This document shows positions 19 to 1,140 of a stretch of DNA of 1,140 nt, one piece after another. The notes under the pieces were generated by a model. It was not told where the DNA came from and did not search any database. It saw nothing but the letters and a program-made list of their open reading frames with translations. Where the stretch lies: NCBI RefSeq assembly GCF_003334315.1, contig NZ_QOWR01000122.1. The stretch is one strand, 5' to 3'. Position 1 is the first letter of the stretch, and the number at the start of each line of letters is the position of its first letter. Origin of the DNA: Escherichia coli (GTDB lineage: Bacteria > Pseudomonadota > Gammaproteobacteria > Enterobacterales > Enterobacteriaceae). A program made the position numbers and the translations under genes.

Positions 19-94
19 GCCCGGATAGCTCAGTCGGTAGAGCAGGGGATTGAAAATCCCCGTGTCCTTGGTTCGATTCCGAGTCCGGGCACCA
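19..94 (+). tRNA. tRNA-Phe, anticodon GAA at 52..54, 76 nt with encoded 3' CCA
   Basis: Read directly: the sequence folds as a canonical cloverleaf with a 7-bp acceptor stem (GCCCGGA/TCCGGGC), D-arm GCTC/GAGC, anticodon stem GGGGA/TCCCC with loop TTGAAAA, T-arm CTTGG-TTCGATT-CCGAG, then ACCA. I recognise it as identical to enterobacterial tRNA-Phe (pheV/pheU type); the two loci cannot be told apart from this window. Confidence 0.97.
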
Positions 95-103
95 AATTCA
101 TAT

Positions 104-131
104 AAACGGACCTCCACGGAGGTCCGTTTTT
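104..131 (+). terminator. Rho-independent terminator of the tRNA-Phe transcript
   Basis: Read directly: inverted repeat AAACGGACCT (104..113) pairing with AGGTCCGTTT (120..129) around a short CCACGG loop region, followed by a T-run (127..131, TTTTT, then CGTTT), about 10 nt after the tRNA 3' end. Confidence 0.8.
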
Positions 132-217
132 CGTTTCAGGGCGCCACGATTTAAGCGTTCTGCCTCCAAATCAATTCTACCGAACTCAACCAGATTCTCC
201 CCACATCAACCCCATTG

Positions 218-242
218 TGTGGGTATAATTGCGGGTATACCC
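218..242 (+). promoter_or_regulatory. Candidate sigma70 promoter for the integrase: consensus -10 TATAAT at 224..229 inside a repeat and palindrome cluster
   Basis: Read directly: perfect TATAAT hexamer at 224..229, 62 nt upstream of the integrase ATG. No convincing -35 (TTGACA-like) lies 16-18 bp upstream, and the TG dinucleotides at 217..220 are not at the extended -10 position. The assignment is motif-only. Confidence 0.35.
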
Positions 243-278
243 CAGTTCGACAGAATTTGTACCCTCTTTAACGCATTC

Positions 279-284
279 AGAAGG
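279..284 (+). promoter_or_regulatory. Ribosome-binding site (Shine-Dalgarno AGAAGG) for the integrase
   Basis: Read directly: purine-rich AGAAGG ends 7 nt before the ATG at 292. An in-frame TGA at 286..288 blocks any upstream extension of the ORF, so 292 is the first available start. Confidence 0.55.
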
Positions 285-291
285 CTGAACT

Positions 292-1140
292 ATGGCACTG
301 ACTGACGCAAAAATCCGGGCTGCAAAGCCCACTGACAAGGCTTATAAACTCACTGACGGGGCCGGCATGTTCCTGCTGGTTCATCCTAATGGTTCCCGTT
401 ACTGGCGTCTCCGTTATCGTATTCTGGGTAAGGAGAAAACCCTGGCACTTGGTGTGTATCCGGAAGTTTCTCTCTCCGAAGCTCGTACAAAACGGGATGA
501 GGCCCGAAAACTGATTTCGGAGGGGGTTGACCCTTGCGAACAGAAAAGAGCTAAAAAAGTAGTCCCTGATTTACAACTCTCTTTTGAACATATTGCACGA
601 CGCTGGCATGCCAGTAATAAACAATGGGCACAATCACACAGCGATAAAGTACTCAAAAGCCTCGAGACACACGTTTTCCCCTTTATCGGCAACCGGGATA
701 TCACAACACTCAGTACCCCGGACCTGCTTATCCCTGTTCGTGCTGCAGAAGCTAAACAAATTTATGAAATCGCCAGTCGTCTGCAGCAAAGGATATCCGC
801 TGTAATGCGTTATGCCGTACAGTCTGGCATCATCAGATATAATCCTGCTCTGGATATGGCTGGCGCATTGACCACGGTAAAACGCCAGCATCGCCCCGCT
901 CTTGACCTTTCACGCCTGCCTGAACTTCTGTCGCGTATTGGCAGTTATAAGGGGCAGTCTGTCACCCGGCTTGCCGTTATGTTGAATCTGCTGGTGTTTA
1001 TTCGCTCCAGTGAACTCAGATATGCCCGCTGGTCAGAAATTGATATTGACAATGCCATGTGGACTATTCCAGCCGAACGCGAACCTCTGCCTGGCGTAAA
1101 ATTCTCACACCGGGGCTCCAAGATGCGAACACCACATCTT
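292..1140 (+). CDS. int: Tyrosine-type site-specific integrase, P4-like family (N-terminal 283 aa; 3' end beyond the window)
   Basis: Open frame from ATG 292 to the window end with no stop (283 codons). My translation begins MALTDAKIRAAKPTDKAYKLTDGAGMFLLVHPNGSRYWRLRYRILGKEKTLALGVYPEVSLSEARTKRDEARKLISEGVDP, which matches the conserved N-terminal arm-DNA-binding domain (DUF4102 type) of P4-like integrases. It later reads LLVFIRSSELRYARWSEIDIDNAMWTIPAER..KMRTPHL, which fits tyrosine-recombinase box I. Position directly downstream of and co-oriented with a tRNA is typical for this family. Family membership is from recognition, not a database search. The supplied ORF track omits this frame, presumably because it has no stop inside the window. 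Confidence 0.93.
   Translation, partial: MALTDAKIRAAKPTDKAYKLTDGAGMFLLVHPNGSRYWRLRYRILGKEKTLALGVYPEVSLSEARTKRDEARKLISEGVDPCEQKRAKKVVPDLQLSFEHIARRWHASNKQWAQSHSDKVLKSLETHVFPFIGNRDITTLSTPDLLIPVRAAEAKQIYEIASRLQQRISAVMRYAVQSGIIRYNPALDMAGALTTVKRQHRPALDLSRLPELLSRIGSYKGQSVTRLAVMLNLLVFIRSSELRYARWSEIDIDNAMWTIPAEREPLPGVKFSHRGSKMRTPHL

Follow-up and report, generated by a model that had tools for sequence, protein, structure and literature searches.

The last 23 nucleotides of the tRNA-Phe gene analysed here are, with high confidence, the attL core, that is the left junction of an 11.6-kb P4-type island that was site-specifically integrated at the 3' end of pheU in Escherichia coli. The analysed window is a stretch of 1,140 nt (assembly GCF_003334315.1, contig NZ_QOWR01000122.1). 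The initial annotation had already proposed that an intact tRNA-Phe gene harbors, in its 3' portion, the core of attL for a P4-family element, and two approaches, the search for a downstream repeat and the comparison of occupied and empty pheV sites, agree with this proposal. The features of the window are the following:

19-94, plus strand: tRNA-Phe(GAA) gene, pheU in strain ZF34 (ARAGORN; Rfam RF00005 tRNA, 68.3 bits)
72-94, plus strand: very probable attL core, the identity block common with attR, from the first base of the T-loop to the CCA end
88-94, plus strand: GGCACCA, the most likely strand-exchange (overlap) segment as inferred from natural variants
95-292, plus strand: P' arm, element DNA between core and integrase gene, which follows pheV in occupied sites and is absent from the virgin pheV of K-12
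95-208, plus strand: stretch repeated to the right of attR with 93-97% identity (repeat family D1, 140 nt at 93%; alignments)
104-131, plus strand: element-borne intrinsic terminator (hairpin at 104-129 with an 11-bp stem and a 4-nt loop, followed by a T run)
218-241, plus strand: two tandem 12-nt candidate arm-type integrase-binding sites, TGTGGGTATAAT and TGCGGGTATACC, with GGGTAYA at 221 and 233
256-267, minus strand: third, inverted candidate arm-type site, AGAGGGTACAAA, with GGGTACA at 258-264
293-1140, plus strand: 5' part (283 of 420 codons) of a P4-family tyrosine integrase gene that runs off the window

The tRNA-Phe(GAA) gene at 19-94 is the chromosomal target (attB) of the island. 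ARAGORN and Rfam agree that it is complete to the CCA end, and the sequence description given earlier for this gene was accurate. Positions 72 to 94 read TTCGATTCCGAGTCCGGGCACCA, which is the 3' 23 nt of the gene, and comprise the T-loop (72-78), the 3' strand of the T-stem (79-83), the 3' strand of the acceptor stem (84-90), the discriminator A91 and CCA (92-94). As the 18 nt preceding the tRNA gene are the same for pheU and pheV in K-12, the window on its own cannot separate the two loci, and a locus call based on these 18 nt was dropped. The assignment to pheU is based on the 100% identity of the window with E. coli ZF34; two other pig isolates are identical to the same extent. The ZF34 copy of the window lies between dicD and cadC, i.e. 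at the pheU locus, and the ZF34 annotation shows a tRNA-Phe gene between dicD and the integrase gene.

The direct repeat of the tRNA 3' end that was expected farther downstream is present in ZF34 at 11.6 kb. It is located at positions 31630-31651 of the ZF34 locus (L001), 11,558 bp downstream of window 72-94, reads TTCGATTCCGAGTCCGG-CACCA and differs from the core (22 of 23 bases matched) by a single indel, the loss of one G from the GGG run. Since the difference is an indel, the copy was missed by a search that allowed mismatches only, in which the tRNA itself was the sole match for the 23-mer in the 41-kb ZF34 locus; it was found by reading the sequence and by a repeat search. The mismatch-only search also returned no match in 100 shuffles of the 41-kb locus, and a chance repeat is ruled out by this control together with the population data. 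The DNA to the left of the attR copy is unrelated to the tRNA and the repeat therefore begins exactly at window position 72. Between the two core copies, the DNA beyond the integrase gene (about 11 kb) has a content typical of islands, with IS fragments, a Doc/Phd pair, IS1, transposase fragments, several pseudogenes and a GTPase-DUF932-antirestriction-RadC-CbeA/CbtA-DUF4942 module which directly adjoins the attR copy.

The other limit of the core is provided by pheV. In the virgin pheV site of K-12 unrelated DNA directly follows CCA, and it is at this point that the site diverges from the window. The sequence from window position 95 onwards, together with the integrase gene, follows pheV in 3055 of 5426 complete E. 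coli genomes. Comparison of virgin K-12 and occupied pheV sites shows that element and target have exactly 72-94 in common and that all bases from 95 on are island DNA. A synthetic attR query, assembled from the P arm of ZF34, the deleted core and the pheV flank of K-12, has matches of 100% identity across 710 nt in no fewer than 25 genomes and is covered to at least 80% in 658 genomes. In practical terms the island can be delimited precisely, its left end by base 72/95 and its right end by the G-deleted 22-mer. In PCN061 (pheV) no right-end repeat was present in the 20 kb fetched downstream, and this strain was set aside, as was E16 (pheU) for the same reason.

The hairpin at 104-129 (-18.4 kcal/mol, z = -5.2) had initially been taken for the tRNA's own terminator. 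This assignment has to be revised, as the hairpin follows pheV in occupied sites only while the virgin pheV site has a different one (-18.1 kcal/mol) at the same offset from CCA. The island brings a like-for-like terminator replacement for the tRNA transcript, and this terminator also shields the integrase gene from tRNA read-through.

The integrase belongs to the P4 family of heterobivalent tyrosine integrases. Its full open reading frame is intact in ZF34 (L001 20292-21554, 420 aa), contains the Pfam domains Arm-DNA-bind_3, Phage_int_M and Phage_integrase and is assigned to PHROG 1 integrase. It shares 54.9% identity with P4 Int over 97% of the length in tblastn (55% in BLASTP, E = 9e-175), and the motifs RSSELR, HGFR, SHxERN and AAYIH (with the Tyr motif) are identical or conservatively replaced in the alignment of the two proteins; among the catalytic residues, the first Arg alone lies within the window. 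The integrases of the CFT073 pheV island and of strain M9 are 98% and 97% identical, respectively. Among the 5426 complete E. coli genomes the integrase occurs 3055 times at pheV and 1319 times at pheU. A simple scan did not find a sigma-70-like promoter for int.

GGGTAYA is present four times in the window, compared with an expectation of 0.15. The inverted candidate site comes after the tandem pair and ahead of the start codon of the integrase gene. On the opposite side of the island, the P arm contains two further tandem 12-nt GGGTAYA sites (L001 31559 and 31571, within 31553-31576), 54 nt left of the attR core, and all five candidate arm-type sites are intact in ZF34. Their spacing matches that of the repeats in the annotated P4 attP (L007), in which the core (718-737) has repeats to its left (641-664) and to its right (850-873), the latter being followed by an inverted one (889-900); the arm-site layout is conserved relative to P4. 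Since the same arm motif occurs at both ends, attL and attR of ZF34 belong together as halves of a single site. The P4 counterpart of the inverted site overlaps the start of int, which hints at autoregulation.

Each end of the island represents one half of a P4-like attP, namely the P' arm at 95-292 and the distal P arm. As a working model, the integrase would pair the 23-bp attP core with the identical bases in the tRNA gene and exchange strands inside this block, thereby leaving core copies at both ends. The tRNA gene in attL would be chromosomal up to approximately base 87, the island would contribute the extreme 3' end and the replacement terminator, and the island's own, usually G-deleted, pseudo-3' half would end up in attR. 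The initial annotation was right in positioning a P4-type core in the tRNA 3' end; its proposal that the copy supplied by the island regenerates the tRNA probably does not hold, because the attR copy usually is without one G. Such an attR-type copy could not regenerate a working gene. The tRNA gene is intact, probably because strands are exchanged 3' of the G defect, as natural variants suggest.

A serious alternative for the present state of the site, which we would not quite favor, is that the core is a fossil, created by site-specific integration but no longer recombining at 72-94 in ZF34, with the island now being fixed. The attR core lacks one base, the island carries IS1, transposase fragments and several pseudogenes, no excisionase or AlpA-type gene is annotated in it, and imperfect repeats have been argued to stabilize pheV islands (PMC11537424). 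Against this stand the intact integrase reading frame, whose product is 97-98% identical to those of many other islands, and the intactness of all five candidate arm-type sites. Furthermore, an excisionase could act in trans, and the she island, which is bounded by the same kind of imperfect 22-bp repeat, is reported to excise precisely, as far as PMC1550401 relates it.

Within the attL core, strand exchange can be placed with moderate confidence in the last seven bases, GGCACCA (88-94), judging from natural variants. This segment is the sole part of the core that is invariant among attR variants, save for one derived allele (EC958; ST131); with the same exception, differences between the tRNA and the remaining published attR variants are confined to 72-83. 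The G deletion (at 87-89) accompanies the same P arm at pheU (ZF34, CFT073) and at pheV (hundreds of genomes). It is found with at least three P-arm lineages, which are 10-15% apart over the last 60 nt, and at both loci, and the 17 nt of the core left of the deletion are invariant across these diverged P arms. A module consisting of an EAL-domain gene and the P arm carries the deletion at pheU in 98198 and at pheV in APEC O1.

The chromosomal flanks follow a different pattern. Over 610 nt of the pheU flank, IMT5155 (deleted) and E2348/69 (empty, intact) show 4 differences, and ZF34 (deleted) shows 5 to CRE444 (intact) and 9 to K-12, whereas the flanks of deleted cores, compared with each other, differ at 20-32 positions (10 for the B2 pair CFT073/IMT5155). 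The pheU flanks of deleted cores thus group with undeleted flanks of the same background and not with each other. At pheV, a 300-nt flank is without any difference between CB9615 (deleted), K-12 (empty) and ET490 (perfect repeat), and the deletion also occurs with two other flank haplotypes. The G marker therefore behaves as a part of the element, which argues for exchange to the right of the marker, and at pheV only GGCACCA (88-94) is left for this. The same P arm is present with an intact GGG at pheV in at least seven genomes, and a related P arm with intact GGG is found at pheU in CRE444. As the G deletion exists at the ends of other element families and in many genera, it may arise repeatedly in place, and this would weaken the haplotype argument.

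A second attR type, TTTCATTCCGATTCCGGGCACCA, has been described for CFT073-like islands (PMC11537424). At the right end of the CFT073 pheV island (L005 904-927, 979-1001) it is preceded by GGGGGCC-type arm repeats; the left end of PAI-pheV carries an integrase and a P' arm of the GGGTAYA type. Because the arm types differ, the two ends seem to stem from different elements, so that the integrase may not excise this island. For the same reason the CFT073-type attR probably derives from another P4-type element; given the GGGGGCC-like repeats in its P arm it was dropped as evidence on the present integrase and lends support by analogy only.

Strands might instead be exchanged at the same att site in the T-loop (72-78), with the island supplying tRNA bases 79-94 and attR representing a displaced chromosomal fragment that later lost its G. 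We regard this as rather unlikely, even though the first base of the identity block, window position 72, is exactly the first base of the T-loop. Such a start is the usual argument for a T-loop crossover, and attB begins in the T-loop for P4-like integrases that use phe, leu and asn tDNAs, both according to a preprint (10.1101/2020.11.02.365908); in the Williams 2002 scheme, as summarized in that preprint, the start of the block corresponds to the T-loop sublocation. The existence of islands with perfect repeats (ET490, CRE444) and of G-deleted empty pheV sites (EC2, NZ_OZ121069, MINF_8D and the metagenome contig L011), as predicted for exchange on the left side, also fits. However, a T-loop exchange requires independent deletions in at least three pheU and at least three pheV flank haplotypes, each of them near-identical to undeleted sites. 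Of the sampled junctions whose right flank is pheU-type (P'-like), about 13 of 14 show exactly this change and no other, as do about 99% of the pheV type-A junctions. The scar occurs in just 3 of 1529 empty pheV sites. In addition, the T-loop of the CFT073-type attR differs from the tRNA at two positions, and all three differences of this attR fall in 72-83 with none in the next 59 nt. Besides exchange at 88-94 and in the T-loop, the remaining weight belongs to mixed or other schemes.

Exchange on the wrong side of the deletion does appear to have occurred. In three complete genomes, out of the 1529 with an empty pheV site, the tRNA-Phe gene at this site is 75 nt long, having lost from its 3' acceptor strand the very G that is missing in attR (EC2, NZ_CP041955.1, L027 500-575; NZ_OZ121069.1; MINF_8D; accession NZ_LR890606.1 listed), and a metagenome contig (L011) shows an empty pheV site with the same deletion. 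PGAP still annotates the G-deleted pheV gene as tRNA-Phe. These empty sites are probably scars of island loss that left behind a damaged tRNA gene. Together with a fragment of an SPI-7-type ICE from a metagenome (L018), which bears the G deletion and has the same flank as the tandem strain M9, they are products of exchange to the left of the deletion. One and the same ICE left flank occurs with both GGG (M9, M19, LI60C3) and GG (L018). LI60C3 had been considered as an ICE fragment with the deletion and was rejected, as its GGG is intact and the deleted version is confined to the metagenome L018.

The recurrence of the deletion was followed by exact searches for the deleted 22-mer, the results of which are conditional on the deletion and come with no denominator. 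In metagenomes (L011-L022) the 22-mer is present in fragments starting at the anticodon stem, with several left flanks and in other genera. In species representatives it is found in 22 loci (L039-L060), mostly in Enterobacterales; the genera are Yersinia, Pantoea, Citrobacter, Erwinia, Budvicia, Pectobacterium, Xenorhabdus, Sodalis, Rouxiella, Limnobaculum, Edwardsiella and Brenneria. The left flanks include P arms with three types of arm repeats, ICE-type fragments and one full-length tRNA-like gene. Random decay would not be expected to make one specific single-base change recur so widely. Possible explanations are an attP/attB asymmetry that is old and conserved, a lesion left by the integrase where it cleaves the G run, and selection for immobilized islands. 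Tentatively, it can be put forward that a defective copy lacking one G is kept across lineages, loci and genera, that exchange is confined to the last approximately seven bases, that the deletion reflects a conserved asymmetry or an integrase lesion, and that rare exchange on the wrong side breaks tRNA-Phe. If true, the broken tRNA-Phe gene would penalize island loss. The defective copy, the recurrent deletion and the inherited scars would show where these integrases cut, and the same three points might explain why clean loss of pheU and pheV islands is rare. It is the recurrent G deletion and the tRNA scars, and these only, that merit follow-up.

At pheU, the repeat is considerably longer than the core. 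It encompasses core, terminator and leader, about 137 nt in total, and extends to approximately window position 208. In K-12, the "empty" pheU site has the same terminator and leader after the tRNA gene, followed by a stump of a P4-type integrase gene (the yjdQ pseudogene of the K-12 annotation), and in most genomes the homology of empty pheU sites to the window likewise ends at 208. The repeat is 137 nt long at this locus because the island was inserted directly before the yjdQ stump, which is what remains of an earlier, now decayed island from its own family. Left in this stump are a P' arm and the 3' part of an integrase gene, about 1.16 kb having been lost (L001 31652-32111; K-12, L002 2692-2854). 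The pheU islands are tandem accretions: what looks "empty" at pheU in K-12 and in most E. coli strains is the older stump, and no truly virgin pheU site was seen. A homologous duplication, i.e. unequal or homologous recombination between related islands in place of site-specific integration, is very improbable as the origin of the repeat: at 93-97% identity up to window position 208 the pheU repeat is long enough for RecA-dependent exchange, but it is fully explained by the yjdQ stump, which is present in empty K-12-type sites as well, and at pheV the same island ends are flanked by the 22-23-nt core alone with unrelated DNA on both outer sides.

Several related elements occupy the same tRNA genes. 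Strain E16 (NZ_CP119726.1, L008 4696-4875) contains another P4-family integrase at pheU that is 42% identical; its P' arm also starts at 95, right after CCA, and bears P4-like GGGGGC arm repeats. The E16 island is large, with genes for raffinose and sucrose utilization, type I restriction and a resistance region (floR, tet(A), sul2, aph), and no right-end repeat was present within the approximately 50 kb fetched downstream. In ET490 (NZ_CP100947.1; L026 25983-27507, L025 20337-20359), a pheV island with a perfect 23-bp repeat encodes an integrase of 77% identity. It combines Klebsiella- or Citrobacter-like cargo (sucrose genes, srfABC) with the usual yee module of E. coli at the right end and is probably a recent, mosaic acquisition. 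In the mouse E. coli strains M9 (NZ_CP010196.1; L023 5960-6012, L028, L029 4606-4627) and M19 (L024), an SPI-7-type element resides in pheV directly before an island of the present family: a 52-nt tRNA fragment is followed by P' arm and integrase gene, and two element classes are thus arranged in tandem in one tRNA gene.

The attL at tRNA-Phe is an instance of an already described system, given that its attR is tabulated in PMC11537424, that excision of she is covered in PMC1550401 and that the integrases of CFT073 and M9 are near-identical. Genes for tRNA-Phe are the commonest island hot spots in E. coli, and our finding re-identifies a textbook arrangement. A catalog of pheV islands has been compiled in which the conserved gene is named intP4 (PMC11537424; PLoS Genet 2024), and TTCGATTCCGAGTCCGG-CACCA is listed in Table 1 of that study as the 23-bp imperfect attR of many pheV islands. 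The ZF34 island shares with these GI-pheV/intP4 islands and with PAI-pheU/pheV, known from uropathogenic as well as other E. coli, the tRNA-Phe target, attL, the sequence of attR and the yee/CP4-44-like right end. Unlike GI-pheV, it is integrated at pheU with an older integrase stump behind it, is small (11.6 kb) and is devoid of virulence cargo. The position of exchange within the repeat is not addressed in PMC11537424.

The she island (SHI-1) of Shigella flexneri, which has a dedicated excision regulator, Rox, resembles the ZF34 island in its imperfect tRNA-Phe 3'-terminal repeat and differs in cargo. It is inserted at pheV and lies between the last 22 bp of that gene and an imperfect copy of them (PMC1550401); experiments showing its precise, integrase-dependent excision through the 22-bp repeats are reported there with reference to Sakellaris 2004.

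P4 itself, integrated at leuX, also has its core at a tRNA 3' end, ending in GGCACCA, with two tandem 12-nt arm repeats about 54 nt to the left and, to the right, two more in tandem and an inverted one ahead of int. P4 differs in its tRNA-Leu target, in its arm repeat (GGGGGCAY instead of GGGTAYA) and in its 20-bp core, which is a perfect match to the target and starts inside the T-loop; moreover, P4 is a phage satellite, whereas the ZF34 island is without phage genes. SPI-7-type ICEs use the same tRNA gene and, like the ZF34 island, have a partial 3' copy of it at the far end. They differ in that they duplicate about 52 nt from the anticodon stem, are large and conjugative, carry ParA/ParB/DnaB at the junction and employ another integrase.
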